Shown here: positions 5,087 through 62,146 of the stretch, one piece after another
Position numbering within the stretch: the first letter of the stretch is position 1
How the letters are laid out: each line of letters opens with the position of its first letter
Assembly: GCA_037445735.1 (NCBI GenBank)
Contig: JBBIJY010000009.1
Coordinates: 12,974 to 76,973, forward strand
Direction: 5' to 3'
Source of the DNA: Armatimonadota bacterium
GTDB lineage: Bacteria; Armatimonadota; Fimbriimonadia; Fimbriimonadales; GBS-DC
DNA: 64,000 nt
Made by a program: the position numbers and the translations under genes
Notes under the pieces: model-generated
The model's database searches: none
What the model was told of the DNA's origin: nothing
What the model saw: the letters and a program-made list of their open reading frames with translations, nothing else

Positions 5087-5156
5087 ACTTCGTGGCACAG
5101 AAAGAGGCAAGCCGTTCCTGCCTGCAGGCGGGGTACAATCTCACCTCGCCAGAGCT

Positions 5157-5185
5157 GGACTGCGGAAGCAGGGCTTCCGCAGTCC
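5157..5185. repeat. 29-nt perfect palindrome (13-bp stem, 3-nt loop), copy 1 of 2 in the window
   Basis: GGACTGCGGAAGC-agg-GCTTCCGCAGTCC lies in the ssb-rpsR spacer. A near-identical copy lies at 34777..34805 inside mfd. Confidence 0.8.
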
Positions 5186-5208
5186 ACATCCGAATGGAGG
5201 TTTAAAGA

Positions 5209-17357: not shown

Positions 17358-19435
<2,078 letters not shown>

Positions 19436-22259
19436 CGGTTGCACAGGTCGGGATAGGTCGCGTTTGTGCCGACATCGGGCAGCACGAGCCAGCAGCGGGC
19501 GCACTTGTTGCCCGGCGCGGCGTCCACCTCGATGCGCAGTCCCCCTTCGCTGAGATACACTTCCGCCTGCGAGACGCCGAACAGGCGCGCCAGCAGGTTA
19601 TCGGGCGTCGGCGCGGTGGGGTAGCTCTGCAACAGGGCTGTTAGTTCGCCGCCCACATAGAGGCGCACACGCGCCGATTGCGGGTTCGGCACCCGCTTCT
19701 CGTTCTTCGCCTGCTCCACCGCGCGGTTGACCGCCTCGCGCAGGTCCAGAAGGTGTTCCCAGCGTTCCAGCAGGCTCTTGTCCAGCCACTCCTCGCGCAC
19801 CGCCGGGAACTCGGCAAGATGCACGCTGACAGGCTTGTTCGGGATGGGCAGGCGCTGCCAGACCTCTTCCATCGTATGCACCAACACTGGCGCGAGCAGG
19901 CGGGTCAGCACGCTCGCAATCTCCAGCAGCACCGTTTGCGCCGCCCGCCGGGCAGGGTCGTCCGCCGCGCTCGCGTAGAGCCGATCCTTCAGCACATCCA
20001 GATAGAACGCGCTCAACTCCACATTGCAGAATCGGCGCGTCTCGTGATAGAACAGGTGATATTCGAACCGCTCATAGGCGTTCAGGCAATAGCGCACATA
20101 CGCCTGCAGGCGAGCCAGCATCCAGCGATCCAGCTCCGGCAGCTGCGCGTAAGGGACGGCGTCGCGAACGGGGTCAAAGTCGGCGAGGTTGCCCACGATG
20201 AAGCGCAAGGTGTTGCGAATCTGGCGATAGGCGTCGGCAACGAACTTCAGAATCTCGCTGGAGAGGCGCACATCCTCGAAATATTCGGTGGAGGCGACCC
20301 ACAGGCGCAGCACATCCGCGCCCAGCTGCTGCACCATCTCCATCGGGTCGACCACATTGCCCTCGCTCTTGCTCATCTTGCGCCCTTCGCCGTCGAGCAC
20401 GAAGCCGTGCGTGATGACGGCGCGATAGGGCGCGGCGTCGCGAGTGCCAATCGCAATCATCAGGCTGGAGTTGAACCAGCCGCGATGCTGGTCGGAGCCT
20501 TCGATATAGAGGTCGGCGGGCCAGCGCAGTTCGGGGCGCGTCTCCAGCACCAGCCGATGCGTGCTGCCCGAATCGAACCACACATCCAGCACATCGCTCT
20601 CCTTGCGGAAGGTGGCGCCGTTGCAGCGGGGGCAGCGCGTGCCCTCGGGCAGGAAGTAGTCGGCGGGCTTATCGAACCACACATCGGAGCCGTCGCGCTC
20701 GATAAAGGTCGCCACGCGCTCGATCAGGGACGGCTCCAGCAGCACCTCGCCGCACGCCTCACAGTAGAAGGCGGGGATTCCAACGCCCCACGCCCGCTGA
20801 CGGCTCAGGCACCAGTCGGGGCGGTGCTGCACCATCGCCGTGATGCGCGACTCGGTCTCAGGCGGAATCCAGCGCACCTGCCGGATCGCCATTAGCGCAC
20901 GCTCGCGATGAGCGTTATGATCGATGCTCATAAACCACTGCACGGTGGCACGAAACAGCAGAGGCGAATCGCATCGCCAGCAGTGCGGATAGTTATGCTC
21001 ATAGAGCGAGTGGTGCAGCAGGTGCCCGTTTGCCTGCAGGCGCTGAATCACTGCCTGATTGCCTTCGGGCGCGATGGGCAGCCCGGCGAACTCGCCCGCC
21101 TCCTCCGTGAACACGCCCCGCTCATCCACCGGGCACAAAATCGGCAGCCCGTACTGGCGCCCCGTGTAGAAGTCTTCCGCGCCGTGTCCGGGCGCGGTAT
21201 GCACCACGCCCGTGCCCTCCTCCGCCAGCACATAGTCCGCCAGCACAACGGGCGATTCGCGCTCGAAGATGGGATGGCGGGCGACTGTGCCGACCAGCTC
21301 GCGCCCTTTGACCGTGCGCTCGACGGCATAGTTGCGAATGCCGAGCGTCTCCATCACGGCTGGCACAAGCGCGTCGACCAGCAGATAGCGGGCGCCATCG
21401 GTGCTCACAATCGCATAATCGAAATCGGGATGCACCGCGAGCGCGAGGTTGGCGGGAATCGTCCAGGGCGTGGTGGTCCAGATCAGCACATAGGCATCTC
21501 CGCCCGATAGCCCGGTCAGGTTCGAGCGCAGGATGGGGAACCGCACATAGATGGCGTCGGAGGTTTTGAGCGCGTACTCCACCTCGGCTTCGGCGAGCGC
21601 GGTCTGGCAGGTGGGGCACCAGAGCGTGGGGCGCAGGTCGCGATAGATGTAGCCGCGTTGCACCAGCTCGCCGAAGATGCGCACCAGCCCCGCCTCGAAC
21701 GCATAATCCATCGTGAGGTAGGGGCGCTCCCAGTCGCCGACCAGCCCCAGCCGTTTGAACTGCTCCCTTTGCACCTTCACGAAGTGCCAGGCGTAGTCGC
21801 GGCACGCCTGGCGCAGCTCCACCTTGCTGGGCGTCTTGCCCTCCTGCAGAAACCGCTGGCTGACGGCGTTCTCGATGGGCATGCCGTGATTGTCCCAGCC
21901 GGGCACATAGGGCGTGCGGTAGCCGCGCATGCTGTACGAGCGCACGATGATGTCTTTCAGCACCTTGTTGAGTGCGTGCCCCATATGAATGTCGCCGTTG
22001 GAGTAGGGCGGACCGTCGTGCAGGATAAAGTCGCCGTTAGGGGCAGGCTTTTGCAGCATGCGCTCATAGAGCGCGATCTCGCGCCAGAACGCCTGCCAGC
22101 GCGGCTCCTGCTCGGGCAGGTTCGCCCGCATCGGAATGGTCTGGTCTTCCCTGGGCAGGTTCAGCGTCTCCCGATAGTTGTTCGCCATTCGCGACCTCCG
22201 CTCAATCGGTAATTGTACCTTAAAGGATTGAGCGCGAAGAGGGCGAAGAAGAGAGGGGA

Positions 22260-32325: not shown

Positions 32326-32585
32326 CCCCTCACCCCAGCCCTCTCCCCCGCTGGGGGAGAGGGAGCATCCGAACCCCTCTCCCCCGCCTGCGGAGAGGGA
32401 GCATCCGAACCCCTCTCCCCCGCGTGCGGGGGAGAGGGTACGGGTGAGGGGGCTATATCCTGCACGCCTGCAAGAAACCCCTCACCCCAGCCCTCTCCCC
32501 AGAGGGAAAGCTAACCCCTCACCCCTACCCTCTCCCCTGTGGGGAGAGGGAGAAATAACTCCCTCACCCCAGAGGGGAGAGGGAG
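32326..32585. repeat. Array of six or more nested-palindromic repeat units between the mfd stop and xerD
   Basis: Successive CCCCTCACCCC..CCCTCTCCCC-loop-GGGGAGAGGG(..GGGTGAGGGG) units include a tandem duplication (GGAGAGGGAGCATCCGAACCCCTCTCCCCCGC x2). The array abuts the mfd stop codon at 32586. Confidence 0.9.
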
Positions 32586-35500
32586 TTATTCGCCTTTTTC
32601 CCCCGCCTGGAGCGATTGGAGCGCTGTCAGCACGGTCAGGAGCGTCTCCAGCGGCTGGGCGGTGAGAGGCAGGCTCATCTTTTCGGGGCGCGTGCGGATA
32701 AAGGCAAACTGCCGCTGCAACGCCGTCTGCCAGCGCGCTTTCAGCCGCCGTTCAGGCTTGAAATCAACTATCAGCCGATTGCCCTCTGCCTGCAGGCTGG
32801 CGGCGCCCACCGCATGCGCCAGAATGCGCACCTCCATTATGCGCAACAGGTTGCGCACGGTCGGCGGCAACTGCCCGTAGCGGTCGCGCAGCTCGCGCAC
32901 GAGGTCTTTCAGCTCCTCGCGTGTGCGGCTGCCCGCGATGCGCTTGTAGTAGCCCAGCCGTTGCGCCACATCGGGGATGTAGTCGGCGGGGATGTAGGCG
33001 TCCACTGGCAGCTGGGCAGGCGGCAGCTCCTCCTGCAGGGGCGTATCCAGCGACCAGTGCGTCTCCCCGTTGCGCAGGTGGCGGATGGCGTCGCGCAACA
33101 TTGCCTGATAGAGTTCGAAGCCGACCATACGCATCGCGCCATGCTGTTCCTCACCCAGCAGGTTGCCCGCGCCGCGGATTTCGAGATCGCGCATCGCCAG
33201 CGCGAAGCCCGAACCCAGGTGGGAGAACTCCCTGAGCGCCTGCAGACGCTCCTCTGCCTTCTCGCTGAGCTTGCCCGCTTTGAACAGGAAATAGGCGTAC
33301 GCCTGGCGGTCGCTGCGCCCGACGCGCCCGCGCAACTGATAGAGCTGCGCCAGCCCGAACCGCTCCGCGCCCTCCACAATCAGCGTGTTCACATTCGGCA
33401 TATCCAGCCCGTTCTCGATAATCGTCGTGCTGACCAGCACATCGTAGCGGTGCTGATAGAAGTCCAGCACCGTCGCCTCCATTCGGGCGGCAGGCATCTG
33501 CCCGTGCGCGACCGCGATTCGGGCGCCGGGCACCAGTCGCTGGAGCCGCTCCGCCACATGCTGGATGCCCTGCACGCGCGGCACCACATAGAACACCTGC
33601 CCGTCGCGCTGGAGTTCACGCAGAATCGCCTCGCGCACTGTCCACTCCGTGTAGGGCAGAACATAGGTGCGGATAGGGAGCCGCCCCGGCGGCGGGTCGG
33701 TGATGAGGCTCATATCGCGGATCTCGGTGAGCGCCATATAGAGCGTGCGCGGGATGGGCGTCGCGCTCATCGTCAGCACATCGACCGCGCCACGCAACTG
33801 CTTGAACCGCTCCTTCTGCATCACGCCGAACCGCTGCTCCTCATCGATAATCACCAGCCCCAGATTGTGAAACTGCACATCTTTAGAGAGCAGGCGGTGC
33901 GTGCCGATGACCATATCGACGGCGCCCGTCTTCAGCCCGTGCAGGATGCGCCGCTGCTCGGCAGGCGTGATGAGCCGGCTCAACAGCGCAACCTGGATGC
34001 CGAACGGTTCGAACCGCTCGGTGAAGGTCTGCCAGTGTTGATACGCCAGCACGGTGGTGGGGCACAGCAGGGCGACCTGCCGACCCGACATGATGGCTTT
34101 GAAGGCGGCTCGCAGGGCGACCTCCGTTTTGCCGAAGCCCACATCGCCCACCAGCAGCCGATCCATAGGATGGGACGATTCCAGATCGCGCTTAACCTCC
34201 TGAATCGCCTGCAGCTGGCTGGGCGTTTCGAGGTATGGGAAGCCCGCCTCCATCTCCTGCTGCCAGGGTGTGTCGGGGTCGCAGGGCGGGCGGGTCGCCT
34301 TCTCGCGCAGGGCATAGAGGCGCACCAGCTCCTGCGCCACCTCCTTCGCCCTGCGGCGTGCCTGCGCCACGCGGCGCGTCCACAGCGCACTGTTGAGCCG
34401 ATGGATTTCGGGCGGCTTCTCATCGGGCGCAATATATTTCTGGATGCGGTCTAACTGGTCTGTCGGCACATAGATGCGGTCGGGGTGCGCGTATTCAATC
34501 AGCAGGTAATCGCGCCTGACCCCATCGCGCTCCAGCGTGGTCAGTCCGCGAAAGATGCCGATGCCGTGATAGAGATGTACCACATAGTCGCCGGGCTGGA
34601 GGTCCATAATGGAGGTGATGGGCACGCCCTCGTTGAATCGGCGGGGGGGCAGGCGCAGGCGATTGCGCTCGAACAGCTCCGCGTCGGTGATGAGCGCGAA
34701 CCGCTGGCTGTCCCACACGAAGCCGCCGCCCAGATTGCCCCGCCAGAGCAGCAGCGGGCGCGACGCCGCATCGGTTTGGACTGCGGAAGCAGGGCTTCCG
34801 CACTCCATATCGGCGTCCGCGAAGGGTAGCTCCGCCTGGCGCAGGGCATGCTTCACCTGATTGGGGCGGTCGGTCGCGATAACAATCTGGTAGCCTGCTT
34901 CGTGCCAGCGGCGCAGGCAGTTCCAGAGGTCAGGCAGCCGCCCGCGTGTCGTCTCCAGCGAGCGTGTGCCAATCGGAACACCCCCCTCACCACTTAGCAC
35001 CAGCGTGCGCGCATGCGAATCGAGCTTCTGAATCGGCTCCAGATAGGCGTCCGCCTGGAGCGGGATAATATCGCCGCGCGATGCACGCGATTCCAGCGCC
35101 TGCTGGAGGTCGTCCATCAGCCGCTCGTATGCCATCTGCAGGCGGAGCGGCTCCTCCAGAATCAGCACTGCATCGGCGGGCAGGTAGTCCAGCAGGCAGG
35201 CGCGTTCCGCCACCAGCCACGGCAGATAGAGTTCCAGTCGGTCAAACGGCGCGCCCTGCGACAGGGGATGCAGGTCCGCCTCCAGATTTTCGCGCAGAAC
35301 GGCTTGCAGCGCCTTCGGCTGGAGCGCGATCCGGGTTTCCCATTCGGCGCGGATGCGTTCGGCAAGCTCCGGATTGCCCATCGGCACCTCGCGGGCGGGC
35401 GGGATGCGCACCACGCGCAGGCTGGCGACCGAGCGCTGCGTGGCGGGGTCAAAACGGCGGAGGCTGACAATCTCGTCGCCGAAGAACTCGATGCGCACAG

Positions 35501-36254
35501 GCGCGTTCGCACCCATCGGGAACACATCCACAATTCCGCCCCGCCGCGCGAACTGACCTGGCAACCGCACTGGTTCCTGATGCTCATAACCGCTCACCAT
35601 CAGCTGCTGGATGAGCGCGTCAGGGGAAATGAATGGCTGGGGCGTCCCGCCCCGCAATGCCCCCTCACCCGTACCCTCTCCCCCGCTGGGGGAGAGGGGT
35701 TCAGTTGCTCCCTCTCCCCTCTGGGGAGAGGGCTGGGGTGAGGGGTTTCCTGCAAGCCTGCGCCCCACAGCCCCCTCACCCGTACCCTCTCCCCCGCTGG
35801 GGGAGAGGGGTTCGGACGCTTCCTCGCCATCCTCAACGGTGGCGAGGGCTAACAGCAATTGTTCAAACATCGCGGGGGGCATCGTGCGTTGCAGGGCGGC
35901 GGCAAGCGGAGCAATCACGATGACCGATTCGCCCCGATAGAGCGCCCGCAGCGCGCGCACCCGCTCATGCAGAACCTCCAGCTCCACTCCCGTCGGCTCC
36001 ATCACGGGCGTCAACCCTGCTGGCACACGCACCAGCCGCGATTCAGGGACGCCGAGCCGCAGCAGGATCGCCAGCCACTGCTCGGCGCGCTCCAGCGAAG
36101 GGGTCAGAATCAGCGCAGGGGCTTGCTGGTCAGCCATCAGCGCTGCTGTCAGCACAGGCGCCGACTCCGAACACACCTCGCGCCACACCAGCGGACGTCC
36201 CCCATCCCAGTCAGGCAATCCACCCCGCAACGCCTGTAGCCAGACGGGCAACAT
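32586..36254 (-). CDS. mfd: Transcription-repair coupling factor
   Basis: 1222 aa. It has an RNAP-interaction/CarD-like domain ([21 protein letters not shown]) and SF2 translocase motifs ([39 protein letters not shown]). Two repeat-derived insertions are carried in frame. Confidence 0.95.
34777..34805. repeat. 29-nt palindrome, copy 2 (inside mfd CDS)
   Basis: GGACTGCGGAAGCagGGCTTCCGCACTCC has one mismatch relative to 5157..5185. The shared flanks (T upstream, A.ATC downstream) extend the match to about 36 nt. Confidence 0.8.
35660..35810. repeat. Nested-palindromic repeat cluster (3 units) inside the mfd CDS
   Basis: Two copies of CCCCCTCACCCGTACCCTCTCCCCCgctGGGGGAGAGGG flank CCCTCTCCCCtctGGGGAGAGGGCTGGGGTGAGGGG. 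On the minus strand this translates as ...[15 protein letters not shown]...[14 protein letters not shown]...[15 protein letters not shown].... Confidence 0.9.
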
Positions 36255-36848: not shown

Positions 36849-36925
36849 TGGTAGCCCCAGGGGGATTCGAACCCCCGTCCTCCTGGCTGAGAACCAGGCG
36901 TCCTAGACCGCTAGACCATGGGGCC
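36849..36925 (-). tRNA. tRNA-Glu (anticodon CUC), 77 nt with encoded CCA
   Basis: The reverse complement is GGCCCCA-TG-GTCT-AGCGGTCTA-GGAC-G-CCTGG-TTCTCAG-CCAGG-AGGAC-GGGGG-TTCGAAT-CCCCC-TGGGGCT-A-CCA. The cloverleaf was folded by hand, with a G1-U72 wobble, U8 and a T-loop TTCGAAT. Confidence 0.9.
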
Positions 36926-36981
36926 ACCCGCCGTTCTGCATGATACCCACTTGATGACGGGAAAGTCAAGAGGAGAGGATG

Positions 36982-37110
36982 CCCCTCACCCGTACCCTCG
37001 CCCCCGCTGGGGGAGAGAGAGAGTTATTAGCCCCTCTCCCCCGCCTGCGGGGGAGAGGGTATGGGTGAGGGGGCTTCACACAGACGGATATGATGCCAGC
37101 GATTTTTCGG
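36982..37110. repeat. Nested-palindromic repeat element next to tRNA-Glu, sharing an extended right flank with the element at 49997..50168
   Basis: The core is CCCCTCACCCGTACCCTCGCCCCCgctGGGGGAGAG...CCCCTCTCCCCCgcctgcGGGGGAGAGGGTATGGGTGAGGGGG. It is followed by CTTCACACAGACGGATATGATGCCAGCGATTTTTCGG; compare 50124-50160. Confidence 0.85.
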
Positions 37111-37247
37111 ATGGAGCGGAGCCATTGCAAAAAGATGGGTGTTCCACACTCACGCGCTTAAAGGCTCCTCCGGCAAGCACCGGGCGCAGGTAAAGGGTAC
37201 CGCGCCCCACCGCTACCCCGTAAAAATACGGGTTTTTTGTGTTTCCC

Positions 37248-37277
37248 TTGACAGAACCGCGCATGTTGGGCTATAAT
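37248..37277 (+). promoter_or_regulatory. Consensus sigma-70 promoter upstream of the PEP-CTERM gene
   Basis: TTGACA (37248-37253), an 18-nt spacer, then TATAAT (37272-37277). Confidence 0.6.
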
Positions 37278-37408
37278 AGCGGTACAGGTACGCGCCCTGT
37301 TCTGATTCGGGCGGCTCCGAGGCACTGATTACATCCTAGCTCCAGACAAAATCCTTCAGCCCGAAGCCGAGAGAAGGGTGTCGTCCTGAAAAAAACCATC
37401 GAAAGGAG

Positions 37409-38158
37409 GTGTTTGTTGTGAGCCTGAAAGGTATCGCAGCAGTGCTTGTGGTAGTGTGTGCTGGCACGCTGGCACATGCCCAGACTGTTCTGTGGGACAC
37501 CGGGGCGCCACACCAGGTGGTCTTTAATAACAATCCCACCTATCTGGGCTATGTGTCAGGGAATGCAGGCGCCGGGCTGGAACAGCGCTGGGCGGCTATC
37601 CCCTTCCGTCTGCCCGGACCCATCTCCGTGATCACCCAGATTGATGTGGACTGGTTCATCGTCGCCGGTCAGGAGGCGGAAACCGTTAACTACATTATCT
37701 GGCGTCGGAACGGTTTGAATCGCCCCGTGGATGGTGACCAGGTAGCATCAGGGGTGCTTGGTGCCTTTGGCCCGGGCATCGATGATCCGCGTGTACCTGG
37801 CACCGAGGATTGGCTCCATCAGTACACGGGTTTGAATATCTCTCTGCCCGGGGGCGACTATTACCTCACCGTTTACGGGGATGGCGGGACGGCTCCCAAT
37901 GTTATTGCCTGGCTCACTGGAGGCGACCTGCAAGCCGAAGACCTGGAGCAGGGGTTTATGTGGCGCTCGGCGACCTTCCCCAATCCCGGATTCCAGCAAT
38001 ATGCTCCAAGCACCATTCAGCCTGCGCCGGGTCAGGACCCCGACGATCGCTGGAACCCATCCTTCACCATCTATGGGTATATCGTGCCTGAGCCAGCAAC
38101 TCTACTGGCACTGAGCGCGGGGCTGGCAGGAGTTGCACTCCGTCGACGGAAGCGATAG
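37409..38158 (+). CDS. PEP-CTERM sorting-domain secreted protein
   Basis: The signal peptide (...VCAGTLAHA|Q) and C-terminal VPEPATLLALSAGLAGVALRRRKR give the PEP motif, a TM helix and a basic tail. The GTG at 37418 has better spacing to AAAGGAGG than the 37409 start. Confidence 0.8.
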   Translation: MFVVSLKGIAAVLVVVCAGTLAHAQTVLWDTGAPHQVVFNNNPTYLGYVSGNAGAGLEQRWAAIPFRLPGPISVITQIDVDWFIVAGQEAETVNYIIWRRNGLNRPVDGDQVASGVLGAFGPGIDDPRVPGTEDWLHQYTGLNISLPGGDYYLTVYGDGGTAPNVIAWLTGGDLQAEDLEQGFMWRSATFPNPGFQQYAPSTIQPAPGQDPDDRWNPSFTIYGYIVPEPATLLALSAGLAGVALRRRKR

Positions 38159-38178
38159 CAGCCTGCCTTCGGTCCGAC

Positions 38179-38215
38179 TCATCCCACCCCCTCTGCATGA
38201 GGGGGTGGGATGTTT
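38179..38215 (+). terminator. Rho-independent terminator after the PEP-CTERM gene
   Basis: CATCCCACCCCCTC-tgcat-GAGGGGGTGGGATG is a 14-bp perfect stem followed by TTTT. Confidence 0.7.
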
Positions 38216-38234
38216 TATGGGGATGCGGCGCTTC

Positions 38235-39548
38235 CTATGGGCGGGCGCGATACTTCTCGTAGAGCCGAATGTGCTTGCTGGTCATCTCGATGGGGCGTCC
38301 AGCAATCCACACCTGGCGCACCTGCGTGCGGATGTCCAGCGGGTCGCCCGTGGTGAGAATGAGATTCGCGTCTTTGCCGGGTTCGATCGTGCCGAGCCGA
38401 TGCTCCAGCCCCAGAATGCGCGCAGGGTAGAGCGTGATGGCTTTCAGACCCTCTTCGTAGGGCAATCCGAAGGCGACCGCCGTCGCCACATGGTAAGGCA
38501 GGTTGCGCACATTGCTGTCATCCGCGCTGGCGATGCAGAACAGCACGCCCTTCTCGTGGAGCCGGCGCGGCTCGGTGAACGGCTCGTCATACGGCGCGTC
38601 CTCGCTGCGAGGGAGCTGATGCACGCGCTGTAAGATCACGGGCACACCCTTTTCGCGCAGTAAGTCGGCGACTTTCCATGCCTCGTCGCCGCCCACAATC
38701 ACGATTCGCACCTTCTCTTCCTCCGCCCAGCGGACGGCTGCCTGAATGCCCAGCGCACTGGTAACGCGCACAAACAGTAGCAGCTTGCCCTCCAGGATGG
38801 GTAGCATCGCTTCGAAGCGCGGGTCGCGCTCGTGCAGGGGTACGCCGTCTTTGCCTTCGGTGCTGCGAGCGCGGGCGTAGCGGCGCGCGTTCTCGAAAAA
38901 CTCACGCAGCGGTCGCATGCGGCTCTCCCAGTCGCGCAGGCGCGACTCCGCCGACTGACCCGCCTCGCCCGACGGCGATGGGAAGTTCACAAAGACCCCA
39001 ATCGGTGTCTTGAGGCACATGTCTTCCCATGTCCAGCCGTCCAGATTGATCACGCAGCCCATGCCCGACAGCATGCCGCCGCTGGGCGCGACCACCGCCG
39101 TGGTGATACCGTTCACACGGGCGACAGGGATCAGCTCCGAATCGGGATTGATGGCGATTTCGGCGCGCACATTCGGGTTGAACGCGCCCGTCTCGGCGGT
39201 ATCGTTGGTGGCGGGCACGGAGCCGACCTCGGTCAGCCCCAGCGTGGTACTGGCATCGATGAAGCCCGGATAGAGGTGCAGCCCCTTCGCATCGTACACC
39301 TGCGCATCGGGCGGCACGCTCACCTGCGTGCCCACCGCCTCGATGCGCCCGTCGCGAATCAGCACCGTCGCGCCCTCTATCGTCGCGCCACTGATCGGAT
39401 GAACCGTCGCATTAACAATCGCGTAAACGCCCTTCGTGGTGAGCGGTCGCTCGCGCGACGCCGTGTACACGGGTCCCAGCGAGCTGCCAGACCCATCCCA
39501 CGCCAAGCCACCAAGCCATAAACCCAGCATCCACAGCCATGCACGCAT
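38235..39548 (-). CDS. Secreted amidohydrolase-family metallohydrolase
   Basis: A signal peptide is followed by the N-terminal composite domain VNATVHPISG..IEGATVLIRDGRIEAVG and then PGFIDASTTLGL. A C-terminal GTIEPGKDANLIL motif is typical of the amidohydrolase superfamily. Confidence 0.75.
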   Translation of the reverse strand: MRAWLWMLGLWLGGLAWDGSGSSLGPVYTASRERPLTTKGVYAIVNATVHPISGATIEGATVLIRDGRIEAVGTQVSVPPDAQVYDAKGLHLYPGFIDASTTLGLTEVGSVPATNDTAETGAFNPNVRAEIAINPDSELIPVARVNGITTAVVAPSGGMLSGMGCVINLDGWTWEDMCLKTPIGVFVNFPSPSGEAGQSAESRLRDWESRMRPLREFFENARRYARARSTEGKDGVPLHERDPRFEAMLPILEGKLLLFVRVTSALGIQAAVRWAEEEKVRIVIVGGDEAWKVADLLREKGVPVILQRVHQLPRSEDAPYDEPFTEPRRLHEKGVLFCIASADDSNVRNLPYHVATAVAFGLPYEEGLKAITLYPARILGLEHRLGTIEPGKDANLILTTGDPLDIRTQVRQVWIAGRPIEMTSKHIRLYEKYRARP

Positions 39549-42415: not shown

Positions 42416-42518
42416 TTCAGACGGAAAAAAAAACCCGAATCGGGACTAAAGCCCCTTTTCCATCGCCAATTTTGGGGTATACTTTAGGTGCAGGTTCATT
42501 ACCTGCAAAGGAGGCTTA

Positions 42519-45500
42519 ATGAACAACCATATGATTCACCCGCTGCCTGGCAGCTGGGGAGCGAAGTTGCTTCTGGCAAGCTGTGTGTTCGTGATGCTGG
42601 CGAACGCTGCCCCAGAGGGAACCTGCTCTTCTAATGCTTGCGTGTTGCCTGCGACCATGCAGGCGCTGGAGCAGCAGATGCGTGAGGCGTATCAGGCGCG
42701 CAAAAGCTGCAAACCCGAACCCCCGATCGAAGTTCGGCTCGAACTGGCACAGTCGCCTGTGCGGAGTCAGCCCGTGCAGGTGGTCTTCTCCGTGTTGCCG
42801 TTTGAGTTCCTGCACAACGCCGAGATCAGCTGGGATGTATCGGAGGGCATCAGCGTGCTGAGCCGCCCCCAGCCCCTTCAGAACCTGCAGATCGACACCA
42901 AGGGCGTGTCCCAGTATCGGCTAACGGTGCAGTTCAACCGTGCGGGCAAGTACGAGATTGCGGCATCGGTGGTGGAGCGTGGCAACGGCTTCACGATGGG
43001 TCGGCGCGTGCATCTCTATTTCGATGTGCGTCCCGACGGCACGATTGAGGTGAGCCGATTGCCCTTCTGGGAGCCGCTTAAGGAGCCGCCCGCAGCGCAG
43101 GAGGTTCCTCCATCCGAACGGATTACGCCGCCTGCCCCCGATTCGCTGGCGCATCTGGGCATCCCACCTGCCCCCCAATCCGAACCCGTGAACGACGACG
43201 AGACCGTTTCGCCTCAGGGTCCCACGGGCACCGCGCGCGTGCGCGGCTACTTCTACTATCGCCACCGCGATGGAACCCTGCATGGCGCGTACGGCGCCCT
43301 CGTGCAAATCTGGGACGACGACAGCTGGTCGGGTGATGACCTGCTGGCGGAAGCCGTCTGCGGGAGCGACGGCTTCTTTGAAACGCCCGACTTCGACAAC
43401 GGCAACGATGGCGACCCGTTCGATGACGCCTCACAGGAGCCGTATGTGCGCTGGTACGCCCGCAACGGGCGCGTGAATGTGGTGCATTACACGGGCGGAC
43501 ATAACTTCCAGGTGAACGGACCCTCAAGCACCGACCTGCCCGATGGCGTGTGGGATATTGGCGGCTGGTTCATCGATACCGATGGCCCCGGCAACTATCC
43601 CGATGATGGCTGGGAAGCCGCCTACGAGATCTGCGACGCGCTCAGTCGCGCCTGGGCAAGCTACTACTACGGGCTGGGCTATGACCTCGCGCTCATCAAC
43701 TGCCGCTGGCAGGAGGGCGGCTCCGATGGCGCCTACTATGAGGGCGGTTCCCAGCGCATCACCCTCCGCGATGGCGACCAGCAGGACGACTCGGTCATCT
43801 TCCACGAATACGGGCACCATGTGATGCAGGTGGTCAAGGGCGGTTTCCCGCCCGGTTCTGGCGGCGCTCATAGCTGGTTCGGCTGCTACAACGGCGGACT
43901 CGCCTGGAGCGAAGGCTGGGCAACCTACTCCGGTCAAAGCTCGCTGGGCGGTACCACCTACTGCGACACACCCGGCGTGGGTGATTCGGCGAACTTCTGC
44001 GTGAATGTGGAGACGACCACAGGCAACTGCTTCGACGGCACCGTTGGCACGACAGGTGAAGCCTCCGTGCTGTCCTCGCTCTGGGATGTGTATGACAATC
44101 TGGCGGGCGACCCCCATCCGCGGGACCGCCTCGCGCTGGGACGCAGCGCCATCTGGGACACCTTCGTCAACGGCGGAACCCTCAACCACATGCTGGACTT
44201 TGTCAATGCATGGTTCGCGCGCGGGTACGACTACGACTCCGCCTTTCGCGATATTATGCGCGACCACCGAATCCTGGCGGAAATCAGCAACTTCGTGACG
44301 GTGGAGATCGACCACACCTATCGGGGTGACCTGGTGGTGGATGTGGGCGTGGGCAATCCCGACGCGCCGCTTTATTCCAAGCGTATCTGGAACCGCGCAG
44401 GCGGCAGTGCGGACAACCTCTACATTCAGGAGAGCGTGGCGGACGCGCCCAGCTTCTACCTGAACAACCCCGACGAGAGCGTGGTCTGGTTCTGCAAAGT
44501 GTACGATGCTGCGGGCCTGGATCAGGGCACCCTGCGCCGATTCAGCCTGACCACTAACAACACTTATGTATCGGGCAATGTGCCCCAACCTGTAACGGAC
44601 TTCAACGCGACCTATGCCTTCTACCCGACGCGCACCGCACGCCACGCCCTGATTGGGCTGGATCACACATACAGGGGCGACCTCGTGGTGACGATAGGGG
44701 CTGGCGATCCGAGCAGTCCGCTCTGGAGCCGCGTGGTGGCAAACCGCACGGGCGGCTCGCTGGACAACATGTGGTGCCAGGTGGACCTTTCGAGCGCCGC
44801 CGCGTTCCTACCCCCTGACCCGCGCACCTGCGACATGCGCGGCTGGTGGGTCAAAGTGGAGGACCGGGCAGGCGCCGATGAGGGCACGCTGCACACCTTC
44901 CTCATCAATAACAACGGCAGTATCACCGACACGAACGATGCGGATCAGCCGATTGTGGACTTCAGCACCAGCTACCTGCGTCAGTGGGGCGACAGCGTCT
45001 GGACCGCAATTACACCCGTTACGGGCGCTTACGGACAGACCGTGCCGCTGAGCGTGCGTATGAATGCTGTCAATCTGGTCAGCTGGATCTGCAACCGCGC
45101 CATCGCCTTCTCCGTGGCGGGCAACCCTGCGGGCAGCGCGAACACCGATGTCAACGGCTGGGCAAGCGTCAACTACACCATCCCTGAAAGCCTTGCCGTC
45201 AGCACGCATAATGTGACCTTCGCCTTCGCGGGCGACTTCTTCTTCAGCGCGCGTACCGCGACCGTCGCCGCGCTGACCGTGCAGAAGGCGAACACCAGCC
45301 TCAGTGTGGTGAACCGCTCCGGCTTCATCGGGCAGACGATTCAACTGCAGGCGACGCTCCGCCGCACCACCGATAACGCGCCGCTGACAGGCAGAAGCGT
45401 GCAGTTCCGCATCGATGGCAACCCCGTCGGCAGCGCAAACACCAACGCCTCTGGCATCGCCACGCTCAACTACACCATCCCGAATATCGCCTGCGACAAC

Positions 45501-45743
45501 CACACCATTCAGGCGGTCTTTGCGGGCGACAGCTGGTACAACGCCGGCTCAGGCGACGCCACGCTGACCGTTCGCCTGCAGGGCGATGTGAACGGCGATC
45601 ACGTGGTGGATGACGCCGACCTGCTCGCGGTGCTGTTTGCGTTCGGTCAGACAGGGAGCCGCCCCGAAGATGTGAACAGCGACGGCGTGGTGGATGACGC
45701 CGACCTGCTGATTGTGCTGTTCAACTTCGGGCAGAGCTGCTAA
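42519..45743 (+). CDS. Large secreted multidomain protein: HExxH metalloprotease-like core, two P-domain-like modules, Ig-like repeats, C-terminal dockerin-like double repeat
   Basis: Signal peptide (...MLANA|AP). The motif is VIFHEYGHHVMQ. Two repeats read (I/L)DHTYRGDLVV..G.G.P..PL.S....NR.GGS.DN. Two repeats read ..(F)...GNP.GSANT...G.A..NYTIP. The tail is GDVNGDHVVDDADLLAVLFAFGQ...DVNSDGVVDDADLLIVLFNFGQSC. Confidence 0.6.
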   Translation: MNNHMIHPLPGSWGAKLLLASCVFVMLANAAPEGTCSSNACVLPATMQALEQQMREAYQARKSCKPEPPIEVRLELAQSPVRSQPVQVVFSVLPFEFLHNAEISWDVSEGISVLSRPQPLQNLQIDTKGVSQYRLTVQFNRAGKYEIAASVVERGNGFTMGRRVHLYFDVRPDGTIEVSRLPFWEPLKEPPAAQEVPPSERITPPAPDSLAHLGIPPAPQSEPVNDDETVSPQGPTGTARVRGYFYYRHRDGTLHGAYGALVQIWDDDSWSGDDLLAEAVCGSDGFFETPDFDNGNDGDPFDDASQEPYVRWYARNGRVNVVHYTGGHNFQVNGPSSTDLPDGVWDIGGWFIDTDGPGNYPDDGWEAAYEICDALSRAWASYYYGLGYDLALINCRWQEGGSDGAYYEGGSQRITLRDGDQQDDSVIFHEYGHHVMQVVKGGFPPGSGGAHSWFGCYNGGLAWSEGWATYSGQSSLGGTTYCDTPGVGDSANFCVNVETTTGNCFDGTVGTTGEASVLSSLWDVYDNLAGDPHPRDRLALGRSAIWDTFVNGGTLNHMLDFVNAWFARGYDYDSAFRDIMRDHRILAEISNFVTVEIDHTYRGDLVVDVGVGNPDAPLYSKRIWNRAGGSADNLYIQESVADAPSFYLNNPDESVVWFCKVYDAAGLDQGTLRRFSLTTNNTYVSGNVPQPVTDFNATYAFYPTRTARHALIGLDHTYRGDLVVTIGAGDPSSPLWSRVVANRTGGSLDNMWCQVDLSSAAAFLPPDPRTCDMRGWWVKVEDRAGADEGTLHTFLINNNGSITDTNDADQPIVDFSTSYLRQWGDSVWTAITPVTGAYGQTVPLSVRMNAVNLVSWICNRAIAFSVAGNPAGSANTDVNGWASVNYTIPESLAVSTHNVTFAFAGDFFFSARTATVAALTVQKANTSLSVVNRSGFIGQTIQLQATLRRTTDNAPLTGRSVQFRIDGNPVGSANTNASGIATLNYTIPNIACDNHTIQAVFAGDSWYNAGSGDATLTVRLQGDVNGDHVVDDADLLAVLFAFGQTGSRPEDVNSDGVVDDADLLIVLFNFGQSC

Positions 45744-45766
45744 CCGCAGTTAGGCAACCCTTCAGG

Positions 45767-45805
45767 GCACGGGGGGTACGCTCGCCTCCCGTGCTTTTTT
45801 TTTTT
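45767..45805 (+). terminator. Rho-independent terminator
   Basis: GCACGGGGG-10 nt-CTCCCGTGC forms a 9-bp stem with one G-U pair. It is followed by a run of 11 T that abuts the convergent cdd stop. Confidence 0.8.
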
Positions 45806-46200
45806 CACAGGCGGAAAGCATGAGGGAGCAGCTCGGCTAAGGTGAAGCGTGCCACGGGGTGTTCCGGGGTGGCAATCAGCACAGGCACAGCCTGCGGGTT
45901 CGGGGCGAACTCCATCAGCACCTGTCGGCATGCGCCACAGGGTGTGCCGCCATCCATCGTGACGACCGCCAGCGCCACGATTTCGCGCGCGCCGTCGGCA
46001 ACCGCGTGAAAAACGGCGGCACGCTCGGCACAGATGCTCAGCCCATAGCTGGCGTTCTCCACATTACAGCCCGTAAAGATTCGCCCGTCGGCGGTACGGA
46101 TTGCTGCGCCGACCGCATAGTTCGAGTAGGGCGCATAGGCTCGCTCGCGCGCCTGCCGCGCCCGCTCAATCAGTTCCTGCTCCTCCGGGCGAAGGCTCAT
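45805..46200 (-). CDS. cdd: Cytidine deaminase
   Basis: CAERAAVFHAV (zinc-ligand C/HAE motif) and PCGACRQVLMEF are present, and the 131-aa length is typical of the tetrameric type. Confidence 0.9.
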   Translation of the reverse strand: MSLRPEEQELIERARQARERAYAPYSNYAVGAAIRTADGRIFTGCNVENASYGLSICAERAAVFHAVADGAREIVALAVVTMDGGTPCGACRQVLMEFAPNPQAVPVLIATPEHPVARFTLAELLPHAFRL

Positions 46201-49996: not shown

Positions 49997-50168
49997 GGAG
50001 GGTGTTCGAAAAATCCAACCAGCGGCAAGGATGCCCCTCACCCCTACCCCCTCCCCAGAGGGGAGAGGGAGAAAATAAACCACTCTCCCCCGCAGGCGGG
50101 GGAGAGTGTACGGGTGAGGGGGCTTCACACAGGCAGATATGATGTCCGCGAATTTTCGAACACCCTCC
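49997..50168. mobile_element. MITE-like 172-bp element: nested-palindromic repeat core bounded by 16-bp perfect terminal inverted repeats
   Basis: The left end is GGAGGGTGTTCGAAAA (49997-50012) and the right end is TTTTCGAACACCCTCC (50153-50168). The interior holds CCCCTCACCCCTACCCCCTCCCCagaGGGGAGAGGG ... CTCTCCCCCgcaggcGGGGGAGAGTGTACGGGTGAGGGGG. There is no coding capacity. Confidence 0.55.
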
Positions 50169-50254: not shown

Positions 50255-51100
50255 GTGCAATGTCCGAACTGTCGGCAGCCGTTGCCAGAGAACGCGCAGT
50301 TCTGTCTGCGCTGCGGTCGCCCGCTCACAGCCACGCTGATGAGCAGCCCGCCCGTTAGCTCCAGCAGTAGTCGCGCGCTCCGGTGGCTCGCGCTCGCGCT
50401 GGGAGTGCTGGTGCTGCTGGGGGCTGTCGCCTTCATCGGCATCCACAGCGGACTGCTCACCCGGGCGCAGGTGAAAAAGCCCGCGGGTCCCAGCGTGCTG
50501 GAGGCGGAGGCGCCCAAGCCCCCAGCGCCCAGCGTGCTGCAAGCCGAAGCGCCCAAGCCGTCGGGTCCCAGCGTGCTGCAAACCGAGACGCCCCAGCCCA
50601 AACAGGCGCCCCAGCATGTGATCAACTGGCTCGAACACCTGCGCCGTATCGAAATGAAACGCCGCACAATGGAGCGCAACTTCAATCCCGCACTGGAGAT
50701 GCTTAAAGACGCACTGGCGCTCAAACTGGAACTGGACGAGGAGAAGCAACAGGAAAAAATGCAAAATCTGCAGCAGGGCTATCAGCGCTATCAGCAGGAT
50801 TGGGCAGGGCTGCTGCGCGAATATCGCTCCGTGCCGCCGCCCGCTGAGTGCCGCGTGTTAGCCGACACCTACGACGCCGCACTGAGCAGCTATGTTACCT
50901 TCATGCTCCAGATCGAAGACGCCATGCAGAAGCAGGACCTCAACCGCCTGATGAATATGCGTGGCACGGCTCAATCCGATGTGGATCAGAAGCTCATTAA
51001 TGCCGATGTGGAGCTGATGAAGGTGTGTGAGAGCTACGGCGTGCGCAAATATTTTGACATTCGCCCGTCGGGCGCCGTCGAAACACTGTTCGGGTTTTAG
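50255..51100 (+). CDS. Zinc-ribbon membrane protein with a Pro-rich tandem repeat
   Basis: The N-terminus is CPNCRQPLPENAQFCLRCG, followed by one TM helix (LRWLALALGVLVLLGAVAFIGI), a 3 x 13-aa repeat and an alpha-helical C-terminal domain. GTG start with GGAGG 10 nt upstream. Confidence 0.5.
   Translation: MQCPNCRQPLPENAQFCLRCGRPLTATLMSSPPVSSSSSRALRWLALALGVLVLLGAVAFIGIHSGLLTRAQVKKPAGPSVLEAEAPKPPAPSVLQAEAPKPSGPSVLQTETPQPKQAPQHVINWLEHLRRIEMKRRTMERNFNPALEMLKDALALKLELDEEKQQEKMQNLQQGYQRYQQDWAGLLREYRSVPPPAECRVLADTYDAALSSYVTFMLQIEDAMQKQDLNRLMNMRGTAQSDVDQKLINADVELMKVCESYGVRKYFDIRPSGAVETLFGF
50480..50596 (+). repeat. Tandem 39-nt (13-aa) repeat x3 inside the CDS
   Basis: The three units are PAGPSVLEAEAPK, PPAPSVLQAEAPK and PSGPSVLQTETPQ. 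Confidence 0.8.
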
Positions 51101-55039: not shown

Positions 55040-55207
55040 TCTCACCCGCAGTTTCTGAACTCCCTCTCCCCCGCAAGCGGGGGAGAGGGTACGGGTGAGG
55101 GGGCTTTTTATCCTGCCAGGCTGAGAAAACCCCCACCCCGACCCTCTCCTTAGCAGGGAGAAACTAAGCCCCTCTCCCCCAAAGGGGGAGAGGGTACGGG
55201 TGAGGGG
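55040..55207. repeat. Nested-palindromic repeat cluster upstream of the dcw promoter
   Basis: The first unit is CCCTCTCCCCCgcaagcGGGGGAGAGGGTACGGGTGAGGGGG, followed by the linker CTTTTTATCCTGCCAGGCTGAGAAAACCCCCACCCCGACCCTCTCC. A second unit, CCCCTCTCCCCCaaaGGGGGAGAGGGTACGGGTGAGGGG, follows. Confidence 0.9.
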
Positions 55208-59084: not shown

Positions 59085-60664
59085 GACGCTTGAGCGAACT
59101 GTTGCAGGAGGCTGGCGTGGCGCATCGGCTGTATGGCGACAGCTGGATTCGCGCCATCCAGGTCGATTCGCGTCAGGTGCAGGCGGGCGATCTGTTCGTT
59201 GCGCTCAAAGGCACGCGCCATGACGGGCATCAGTTCCTGCAACAGGCGATTGAGCGGGGCGCCGCCGCGCTGCTGGTGAGCAACGCGAGCGCCATCCCGC
59301 CCAACGCACCCGCATGGGCACAGGTGGACGACACACGCGACGCACTGTGGCGGATTGCCCGGCAATTTTACGGGGACGCGAGCCGCCAGCTGAGGGTGGT
59401 GGGCGTCACGGGCACCAACGGCAAGACCACCACCACGCACCTGATGCGCGCGATTTTCGAGGCGGCAGGTCTGCCCTGTGCGCTGATTGGCACGCTGGGC
59501 GCCGCGCTACCCCACCTACTGGAAGATGCCCCCTCACCCGTACCCTCTCCCCAAAAGGGGAAGAGGGGTATAGAGAATCCCCTCTCCCACGCTGTGGGGG
59601 AGGGGGCAGGGGGCGAGGGACCTGCCCTGACCACGCCGGAGCCGTTTGTGCTGCAGGCGCTGTTGTGCCGTGCGCTGGAGCGGGGCGCCCGCGCCGTCGC
59701 GATGGAGGTCTCCTCGCACGCGCTCGACCAGCGCCGCGCCGATGGCATCCGCTTCGACGCAGGCATCTTCACCAACCTCACGCCTGAACATCTGGACTAT
59801 CACCCCACGATGGAGGCTTACGCCGCCGCCAAACTGCGTCTGTTCACCGAGCTGGCACGCCAGTCGGGCAAGCCGTTCCGCGCCGTTATCAATCTCGATG
59901 CGGAATGGGGCGGGTGGTTCGCCGAGCGTGCCGAAGGCGAGCTGTGGACTTACGGCACACAGCCGAACGCGCGCGTGCGAGCCACCGAGGTGCAGATTCA
60001 CACCGATGGCATCCAGTTCATCGTGCAGGCGGATGCCGGCAAGCCGTTGCGCTTCCCTGCCCGCATTCGGCTCAGTGCACCGTACAACCTGCAGAATGCG
60101 CTGGGCGCGATTGCCGCCGCGCTCAGCCTCGAACTGCCGATTGAAGCCATTCAGGTGGGTCTGCTGCGTGTGGAGCGGGTGCCCGGGCGCTTCGAGCGCG
60201 TGCCCATCGATGCCCCCTTCACCGTGATTGTGGACTACGCGCACACGCCCGACGCCCTCCGACGCCTGCTGGAGGCGGCGCGGGCGCTGGAACCCACACG
60301 CCTCACCATCCTGTTCGGCTGCGGGGGCGACCGCGACCCGACCAAACGCCCCGTGATGGGCGCCATCGCCACTGAACTCGCTGACCGCGTGATCCTGACC
60401 TCCGATAACCCGCGCACCGAACCACCCGAACGCATCCTTGAGCAAATAGTGGCAGGCATCCCGCCCGAACGACGCGAGAAAGTGGTGGCGATTGAACCCG
60501 ATCGGCGCACCGCAATCGCGATTGCTCTGGAGCAGGCGATCGCGGGCGAGCTGATCCTGCTAACAGGCAAGGGACACGAGAACTATCAGATTATCGGCAC
60601 GACAAAGTTTCCGTTCAGCGATCGTGAGACCGTGCTGGAGTTGATGGGAGCGAAGCGAGCATGA
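59081..60664 (+). CDS. murE: UDP-N-acetylmuramoyl-L-alanyl-D-glutamate--2,6-diaminopimelate ligase
   Basis: Motifs GVTGTNGKTTT, MEVSSHAL, DYAHTPDAL and the DNPR motif (meso-DAP type). It carries an in-frame repeat-derived insertion of about 30 aa between IGTLG and TTPEP. Confidence 0.95.
   Translation: MRRLSELLQEAGVAHRLYGDSWIRAIQVDSRQVQAGDLFVALKGTRHDGHQFLQQAIERGAAALLVSNASAIPPNAPAWAQVDDTRDALWRIARQFYGDASRQLRVVGVTGTNGKTTTTHLMRAIFEAAGLPCALIGTLGAALPHLLEDAPSPVPSPQKGKRGIENPLSHAVGEGAGGEGPALTTPEPFVLQALLCRALERGARAVAMEVSSHALDQRRADGIRFDAGIFTNLTPEHLDYHPTMEAYAAAKLRLFTELARQSGKPFRAVINLDAEWGGWFAERAEGELWTYGTQPNARVRATEVQIHTDGIQFIVQADAGKPLRFPARIRLSAPYNLQNALGAIAAALSLELPIEAIQVGLLRVERVPGRFERVPIDAPFTVIVDYAHTPDALRRLLEAARALEPTRLTILFGCGGDRDPTKRPVMGAIATELADRVILTSDNPRTEPPERILEQIVAGIPPERREKVVAIEPDRRTAIAIALEQAIAGELILLTGKGHENYQIIGTTKFPFSDRETVLELMGAKRA
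59529..59619. repeat. Degenerate nested-palindromic repeat inside the murE CDS
   Basis: The sequence is CCCCCTCACCCGTACCCTCTCCCCaaaaGGGGAAGAGGGG...CCCCTCTCCCacgctgtGGGGGAGGGGG.... It translates as [31 protein letters not shown]. Confidence 0.8.
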
Positions 60665-62061: not shown

Positions 62062-62146
62062 TCAGCCTCCCTCTCCCCCTTTGGGGGAGAGGGTACGCAA
62101 TCAGCCTCCCTCTCCCCCAGAGGGGGAGAGGGTACGGGTGAGGGGG
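62061..62146. repeat. Two tandem nested-palindromic repeat units in the murF-mraY spacer
   Basis: The units are ATCAGCCTCCCTCTCCCCCtttGGGGGAGAGGGTACGCA and ATCAGCCTCCCTCTCCCCCagaGGGGGAGAGGGTACGGGTGAGGGGG. They start at the last base of the murF stop codon. Confidence 0.9.

Follow-up and report, generated by a model that had tools for sequence, protein, structure and literature searches.

Triplex-motif repeats carried in frame within mfd of an Armatimonadota genome, a probable tolerated insertion

How does a palindromic DNA repeat that also occupies the spacers between genes come to lie inside a conserved gene without breaking it, and does its presence there serve any purpose? The question is raised by a 64,000-nucleotide stretch of an Armatimonadota genome (assembly GCA_037445735.1, contig JBBIJY010000009.1, positions 12,974 to 76,973; hereafter the window), in which mfd, the gene for the transcription-repair coupling factor (32586..36254, minus strand, 1222 aa, open reading frame [ORF] intact), contains three units of such a repeat. 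A first-pass annotation, made from the letters alone, had described these units as nested palindromes and had proposed an insertion that became translatable in the manner of the Rickettsia palindromic elements (RPEs). The analysis presented here identifies the units as belonging to a repeat family known as BoxC, PIT or TMECO, and points with good confidence to a cluster that was tolerated in mfd as a passenger insertion, one that selection would have filtered for reading frame, lack of stops and location in a permissive loop.

The repeat-encoded insert comprises 60 residues (aa 144-203; 35646..35825, minus strand), and these are the peptide that the first-pass annotation had quoted. It directly precedes the UvrB-interaction domain (Pfam match from aa 209) and lies upstream of a conserved segment at aa 222-246, in the N-terminal UvrB-homology region where it had been placed. 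Three hairpin units are present and the frame is open throughout, as had been claimed for the unbroken 1222-aa ORF. Unit 1 (35773..35809, minus strand), with the structure CCCTCTCCCCC-AGC-GGGGGAGAGGG-TAC-GGGTGAGGG, is an exact match to the TMECO pattern, runs in the sense direction on the coding strand and encodes 13 residues. Unit 2 (35710..35744, plus strand), a further match to the pattern, lies on the template strand and is read antisense, likewise as 13 residues, and the spacer within this inverted motif pair (35746..35771) is related to the intergenic spacers GCTWTATCCTGCANGCCTGCNAGAAA through a family of 98-nt copies (D4) found at 7602, 32413, 35707 and 55064. Unit 3 (35662..35698, minus strand) also matches the pattern, is again sense on the coding strand, and aligns as the ortholog of a single unit in the closest sister genome. 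The two sense units are identical to each other over ~45 nt. Hairpins at 35675-35697, 35711-35731 and 35786-35808 have perfect stems of 10-11 bp, and the minimum free energy of the 171-nt insert is -55.7 kcal/mol (z = -5.0 against shuffles), values that describe hairpin folding only. The peptide is rich in Gly, Glu, Pro and Ser, which account for 40 of its 60 residues; it had no match in an index of 5.8 billion proteins, and an exhaustive phmmer search returned only 8 weak matches, mostly to proteins without Pfam domains.

Judged by its sequence, the unit is the intrastrand-triplex motif that has been described from E. coli and 262 proteobacterial genomes under the pattern 5'-CCCTCNCCC N3-6 GGGNGAGGG N3 GGGNGAGGG-3' (Holder et al., 2015, NAR 43:10126, PMC4666352). 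PIT stands for potential intrastrand triplex, and Bergler (1992) and Hoyne and Maher (2000) are cited there for these repeats. As a single strand, the motif forms an intrastrand purine-motif triplex in vitro, as seen by circular dichroism and nuclear magnetic resonance (PMC4666352). In the window, a unit combines a G/C-rich hairpin, CCCTCTCCCCC-loop-GGGGGAGAGGG, with a purine block in mirror repeat, GGGTGAGGGG, that comes 3 nt after it; an example, CCCTCTCCCCC-AGC-GGGGGAGAGGG-TAC-GGGTGAGGGG, fits the TMECO pattern exactly, and all three mfd units are complete, exact motifs. The full three-block motif matches the window 10 times with a first gap of N3-8 (0 in 100 shuffles) and 13 times with a first gap of N3-10 (0 expected), the wider gap having been used since the stems here are 10-11 nt, not 9, with true loops of 3-6 nt; the hairpin pattern alone matches 6 times, again with 0 in 100 shuffles. 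Except in their loops, the window units are nearly identical to the E. coli sequences given in Table 1 of PMC4666352. In the units at 35662-35698 and 35773-35809, the mirror blocks GGGGGAGAGGG / TAC / GGGTGAGGGGG give, by eye, 11 consecutive allowed triads (G*G-C / T*A-T / A*A-T, the class II purine motif), a pattern suggesting that the window units can fold as triplexes when single-stranded. No RNA family in Rfam matches the repeats, the only match being a tRNA at 36852-36925.

The nested palindrome of the first-pass annotation can be refined. It is made of two motifs in inverted orientation, each of which contributes its third block as an outer arm; the unit itself is not just a palindrome but a hairpin with a mirror third block. 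The inverted-pair arrangement is present at 5 E. coli loci (PMC4666352) and recurs in the window at 7558/7603, 32411/32516, 35710/35773, 36983/37032 and 50035/50081.

The gene that carries the insert is intact and constrained. Pfam matches in its product cover UvrB_inter (209-289), CarD_TRCF_RID (552-608), DEAD (677-838), Helicase_C (876-981) and TRCF (1082-1172), so that the Mfd (TRCF) domain set of UvrB-homology module, RID, SF2 translocase and TRCF C-terminal domain is complete, and solved Mfd structures in the PDB match the protein at E = 1e-195 to 1e-200 in a sequence search. The window and sister genes use the same start codon and align over 1184 codons with no frameshift; synonymous divergence (dS) over these codons is 0.099 and nonsynonymous divergence (dN) 0.014, and because dN/dS is 0.14, mfd is under purifying selection. 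Residues 1-420 were modeled with AlphaFold from an alignment of 72 sequences; the model has a mean predicted confidence (pLDDT) of 88.8, and its fold matches those of the E. coli Mfd N-terminal structures 3hjh and 2eyq and of UvrB. For residues 150-197 the confidence drops below 50 and no secondary structure is predicted, between flanks above 95. Whether the segment might be a surface loop had been asked at the outset, and the model answers with a disordered loop, predicted to lie between the last D1a helix (140-146) and the start of D2, the UvrA-interaction domain, which the insert adjoins.

An alignment of 40 Mfd orthologs restricts the segment to a single lineage. The closest protein (P0001, 94% identity), from the Armatimonadota metagenome-assembled genome (MAG) ETS170220_bin_231 (GCA_037444405.1; here the sister genome), has one unit at the site; short ESDxSDxSD segments take its place in proteins at 72-76% identity, and those below ~65% have nothing. 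The repeat-encoded segment is absent from all orthologs below ~90% identity, and among the aligned orthologs no distant lineage without the repeat family showed a homologous segment. The resulting series of zero, one and three units, together with the disordered loop and the constraint on the gene, supports the proposal that the repeat was inserted into a pre-existing gene. A metagenome scan for further mfd alleles recovered only distant Mfd proteins, through the generic word IEFFGDEI, and no extra alleles with zero, one, two or three units. A triplex element in the relatives at ~75% identity was considered and rejected: in the mfd of the 76% relative (GCA_900175155.1, locus L164, 6430-6490) the (xSD)n segment is a 9-nt tandem repeat, TCGGACCAGTCGGACCGTTCAGAC, without the triplex motif. 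The Mfd site is accordingly a general hotspot for length change.

At this site the sister mfd locus (L001) is shorter than that of the window by exactly 111 nt (37 codons), with no change of frame. Pairwise DNA alignment assigns the difference to a module at 35703..35813 (minus strand), bounded by a direct repeat with a spacing of 111, and its exact placement is ambiguous as the boundaries fall within that repeat. The two genomes are ~96% identical in DNA across syntenic blocks, and the difference is therefore recent. A simple tandem duplication of 111 nt was rejected, as the one-unit allele of the sister lacks both the spacer and the inverted partner; what is left is either a gain for which some other copy served as template, or a loss by deletion from the sister genome. 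Since the two sense units of the window are alike and the sister unit differs from them at 5 positions, gain in the window lineage is mildly favoured over loss in the sister. The intergenic cluster at 55040..55207 differs from its sister counterpart in the same fashion, by one unit-linker-unit-spacer module of 105 nt that the sister lacks, which suggests that the process changing copy number in intergenic arrays has also acted inside mfd.

The units are not read in just any frame. One frame of GGGTGAGGG contains a TGA stop (GGG-TGA-GGG), leaving two that are open, and every sense intragenic unit in the window and the sister reads ...GEGTGEG..., none ...ERVRVR... (7-9 loci, counted by hand). 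Were the two open frames used equally, such a result would have a probability of roughly 0.002-0.008 for 7-9 loci by our arithmetic. The exception is an array in the more distant P0016, which reads ...GEGLGVRA.... Since the motif pair is quasi-palindromic, both orientations of insertion offer the same set of frames.

Insertion in frame is also not confined to this site, and the murE case and a second palindrome within mfd go beyond what had been noted at first. In murE (59081-60664), copies of the same family encode 34 residues (aa 149-182; 59525..59626, plus strand) as a partly decayed inverted pair, lying between the P-loop and the TTPE motif of a product that has all three Mur-ligase domains. 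The insert is common to the sister, with a 1-codon indel, and has diverged by ~27% compared with ~6% for the protein overall. In another lineage (P0127 and P0130, 67-69% identity) murE carries independent inserts of the same family in the same loop, accompanied by a genuine GTAG-type REP. Among 16 sister-genome clusters, at loci chosen for containing the exact 23-mer GGGGAGAGGGTRYGGGTGAGGGG, five are flanked to either side by Pfam domains of the gene that holds them, namely mfd, murE, a Cache-HAMP histidine kinase gene, glnE and lpxK; for a sixth, located N-terminally in an M20 peptidase ORF, the case is uncertain. The pyruvate kinase gene of another Armatimonadota MAG carries one in-frame copy. 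The comparison with RPEs has thus proved a fair analogy, the family being found in frame in murE and in at least four more genes of relatives. Overall, the share of clusters that are in frame inside genes is roughly between a quarter and a third.

The MurE loop has been occupied by other repeats as well. In a relative from a JGI metagenome (L082, 6610-6660), a perfect GTAG-tagged REP, GTAGGGGCGACCCGGTGGGTCGCCCCTAC, is read in frame (VGATRWVAPT) beside triplex-motif units, so that one MurE loop holds two different repeat families, and in a ~75% relative (P0123) the same loop contains an (xSD)n low-complexity segment. The permissive loops of Mfd and MurE are thus filled with different repeat types in different lineages.

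The second palindrome in mfd (34777..34811, minus strand; TGGACTGCGGAAGC-AGG-GCTTCCGCACTCCA) is unrelated to the triplex-motif family and is read in frame as 12 residues at ~aa 483-494. Its stem is 13 bp (TGGACTGCGGAAGC-AGG-GCTTCCGCAGTCCA), and a 94% identical twin (family D20) at 5156-5190 is apparently intergenic, placed where neighbouring ORFs end. The mfd site varies in length among orthologs, and it is here that P0016 has its array of triplex motifs, of ~100 aa.

A history of the mfd insert can be proposed from these comparisons. One unit would have entered the linker between Mfd D1a and D2 before the window and sister lineages split, after which the 111-bp module of unit, linker, unit and spacer would have been gained here or lost in the sister, through the kind of copy-number change observed at the intergenic clusters, be it recombination, gap repair or slippage between copies. 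Insertions into genes would be common owing to the density of the family, and selection would remove them unless the frame was kept, stops were avoided, the encoded peptide was soluble and flexible and a permissive loop was hit. The insert in mfd may have persisted by having a length that is a multiple of three, a stop-free frame, a Gly/Glu/Pro/Ser-rich disordered peptide and a permissive surface linker as its site, and these properties are why it is read as a tolerated passenger and not as a functional module. In this it would parallel intragenic REPs, for which Di Nocera et al. (2013, PMC3733652) offer this interpretation, and RPEs, for which it is the usual one.

Several points weigh against this history. 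Translation of the insert is deduced from the integrity of the ORF and purifying selection only, and neutrality for Mfd function is presumed for an insertion site that adjoins the UvrA-binding domain D2. No outgroup polarises the 111-bp event. Both genomes are probably metagenome assemblies and the coverage of the sister is low (~3.6x k-mer coverage, from its contig names), and collapse or expansion of a repeat array during assembly may have occurred. As to how the family spreads, a tblastn search with three RAYT/TIRYT queries found neither RAYT nor other transposase in the window or the 81 fetched loci, apart from one weak match in an Omnitrophota locus; no transposase has been found for the E. 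coli copies either (PMC4666352).

Among the competing explanations, none of which is favoured, a function exerted by the DNA itself is very unlikely. The mfd array might act as an obstacle to replication or transcription or as a recombination hotspot, and in this way tune mfd expression or generate linker-length variants, as a contingency-type locus would. In vitro, TMECO motifs form stable triplexes and block polymerase, and in E. coli local instability of the genome is associated with them (PMC4666352); the perfect 11-bp stems and 11 triads of the mfd units would suit such a role, as would a 111-nt polymorphism between near-identical genomes. Synteny breaks and indels relative to the sister moreover coincide with several repeat clusters, in a small sample without control regions. 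However, Holder et al. saw no triplex footprint in vivo, and earlier work, to the extent that it is cited in PMC4666352, is reported to have detected neither promoter or terminator activity nor an in vivo effect. Being in frame, the indel does not act as an on/off switch for the gene; any direct or inverted repeat would be expected to bring instability as a by-product, and the sampled intragenic loci show no enrichment in repair genes.

It is very unlikely, too, that triplex-motif repeats serve in this lineage as a systematic generator of variation in protein linkers, through preferential entry or expansion at the loop-coding DNA of essential genes, the possession of one benign frame and changes in copy number. 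If this were true, genome stability might in turn be affected by the array in mfd, whose product is itself a factor for stalled transcription.

That the insert is an adaptive protein module is very unlikely. In such a case the 60-residue flexible loop would have been selected for changing the behaviour of Mfd, for example through the autoinhibitory contact between D2 and D7 or through the recruitment of UvrA, and the constant ...GEGTGEG... frame would reflect a useful peptide. The position next to D2 and the constancy of frame over 7-9 loci are consistent with this, and the insertion of REPs into repair genes has been speculated to be more than chance (Di Nocera, De Gregorio and Rocco, 2013, BMC Genomics 14:522, PMC3733652). 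The same peptide, however, is found in enzymes as unrelated as MurE, LpxK, GlnE, a histidine kinase and pyruvate kinase; two genomes that are ~96% identical have different copy numbers; the murE insert evolves ~4 times faster than the rest of its protein; and the Mfd loop is predicted to be disordered, its place being taken in relatives by an unrelated SD repeat or by nothing. Avoidance of the Arg/Val-rich alternative frame explains the frame bias more simply.

An artefact is highly improbable, whether as an assembly error that created the array or as an inactive mfd whose open frame is fortuitous. In its favour, both genomes are likely to be MAGs, repeats pose problems for assembly, and G/C-rich repeats have few stops, with four of the six frames open across the insert. 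Against this, the independently assembled sister has a unit at the exact site and in the same frame, the 1184-codon alignment returns the dN/dS of 0.14 with no frameshift, and every one of the helicase and TRCF motifs is conserved. At only 38-45 nt, the identical repeat cores are moreover shorter than typical assembly k-mers and reads. The reverse direction, with the coding segment an ancestral low-complexity sequence and the intergenic copies derived from it or unrelated, has nothing specific in its favour beyond the low-complexity linkers that do occur at the site in relatives, and on sequence grounds it is effectively refuted by the same motif standing non-coding, in both orientations, in many phyla (39-67% GC), by the described intergenic family in E. 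coli (PMC4666352) and by the orthologs without the segment.

The tolerated passenger insertion can be set against the systems already described. To BoxC/PIT/TMECO, the likeness lies in the near-identical three-block sequence (CCCTCNCCC-loop-GGGNGAGGG-N3-GGGNGAGGG), in loops that vary on conserved stems, in frequent inverted pairs, in having no known transposase and in an association with local rearrangements and indels between close relatives. The window differs in that stems are 10-11 nt and often perfect, as opposed to 9 nt with a mismatch in E. coli, that the second loop is mostly TAC instead of TTA or CCG, and that the host belongs to the Armatimonadota. The 13 strict motifs in 64 kb correspond to a density of ~200 per Mb, roughly 40 times that of E. 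coli K-12, whose whole chromosome contains 23 copies (~5 per Mb; PMC4666352). The E. coli copies are always intergenic (PMC4666352), whereas the family here is found in mfd, murE and, in relatives, the genes for the histidine kinase, GlnE, LpxK and pyruvate kinase; this is a difference in behaviour, not in the sequence that defines the family.

RPEs are short palindromes found in frame in many unrelated housekeeping genes, according to the summaries of Ogata et al. (2000) given in PMC10969869 and PMC3733652. As far as those summaries describe them, they share with the present family the in-frame insertion of a palindrome, a characteristic frame and conserved peptide for each family, and host proteins that are presumed functional. 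RPEs are summarised as single elements of ~100-150 bp, whereas the units here are ~37 nt long and occur in arrays, and the peptide here is Gly/Glu/Pro/Ser-rich and predicted to be disordered. The sequences are taken to be unrelated, membership in the Rickettsia families RPE-1 to RPE-10 being implausible for a G/C-rich triplex unit in an Armatimonadota host, and the likeness is one of behaviour.

Intragenic REPs of the GTAG/CGTC type come closer in behaviour, occurring in many species, often in repair genes, and being regarded as probably neutral where they fall in loops (Di Nocera et al., 2013). Singles, dimers and clusters of these elements within ORFs encode 7-82 residues and are interpreted as tolerated in linkers and loops, often in genes of replication and repair such as those for UvrABCD, RecBCD and PolA (PMC3733652); mfd and murE are absent from the gene list in the supplement to that paper. 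The units in the window differ in having no fixed GTAG or CGTC tag, the bases beside their stems being variable (GTA-C, CAG-C, CTA-C, CAA-C), and in having the extra third triplex block; a genuine GTAG REP was encountered only as the GTAGGGGCGACCCGGTGGGTCGCCCCTAC of a relative's murE insert. REPINs mobilized by RAYTs (Bertels and Rainey, 2011, PMC3116915) resemble the inverted pairs in being two-unit palindromes with a ~26-nt, partly conserved spacer and many copies, mostly between genes. They differ in their GTAG tag. A RAYT was not detected in the window or the fetched loci, and the doublet may be the mobile unit here.

What seems to be new is the presence of this family inside coding sequence, which was not found in the literature searched; the repeat family itself and the behaviour, as known from RPEs and from intragenic REPs including those in genes for UvrA/B/C/D, RecBCD and PolA, were already known. 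The locus joins two literatures that have been separate, on intergenic triplex-motif repeats and on in-frame palindromic insertions, and adds the Armatimonadota, with a very high density, to the hosts of the motif. The series of zero, one and three units at the Mfd linker and the recurrent insertions in the MurE loop amount to a small natural experiment on insertion-tolerant sites and the filtering of frames. Such inserts also lengthen proteins, and can mislead the annotation and alignment of proteins from MAGs.

Elsewhere in the window, the family occupies the three intergenic spacers where the first-pass annotation had placed it, 32326..32585 directly downstream of the mfd stop codon, 55040..55207, and 62061-62146, and in addition 7557-7740, 19333-19374, 36982-37072, 50034-50121 and 59530-59617. 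Beyond it, the exact 23-mer GGGGAGAGGGTRYGGGTGAGGGG is found in at least ten other lineages, among them Omnitrophota, Rhizobiales, Nitrospirota, Methylomirabilota and Clostridia, in genomes of 39-67% GC. One Omnitrophota MAG (39% GC) has dense tandem arrays of the motif, and in Rhizobiales it takes the form of a single long hairpin or of inverted pairs that lie far apart. A non-coding motif of ~36 nt is conserved across phyla in this way.

Some clusters in the window stand in an ambiguous relation to the neighbouring ORFs. The ORF at 7515-9200 (plus strand), directly after speE, starts with a signal-peptide-like stretch, VRAVLMLTALLLAIAL, continues with ~60 repeat-encoded residues in the usual frame and ends in a 480-aa body without a Pfam match; with its cluster at 7557-7740 it may be a third in-frame case, or its start may be over-extended. 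At 19333-19374, a lone motif lies between the ileS stop (19405) and an ORF for a PMT-family glycosyltransferase (17939-19504, minus strand). The longest reading of this ORF would translate the motif, as 14 residues, in a frame different from that of the other cases, and the motif is probably upstream of the true start.

Comparison with the sister also revealed differences in gene content. Synteny ends at ~32515, at the cluster downstream of mfd. A segment of ~1.3 kb (36931-38235 region) is present in the window only and contains a PEP-CTERM protein gene (37409-38158), adjoining the tRNA at 36852-36925 and a repeat cluster; a second window-only segment of ~3.4 kb (42428-45807) contains a 1074-aa ORF with dockerin-like repeats (42519-45743). 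An 84-nt block with copies at 37026-37109 and 50075-50158 (86% identical) combines a triplex motif with ~40 nt of non-repeat sequence, GCTTCACACAGRCRGATATGATG, and each copy lies upstream of a plus-strand ORF (the PEP-CTERM gene at 37409, and 50255-51100), for which it may provide a shared leader or promoter. The latter ORF contains three tandem 39-nt repeats of a coding type (50477-50599; KPxGPSVLxAEAPKP-like) that are unrelated to the triplex-motif family.

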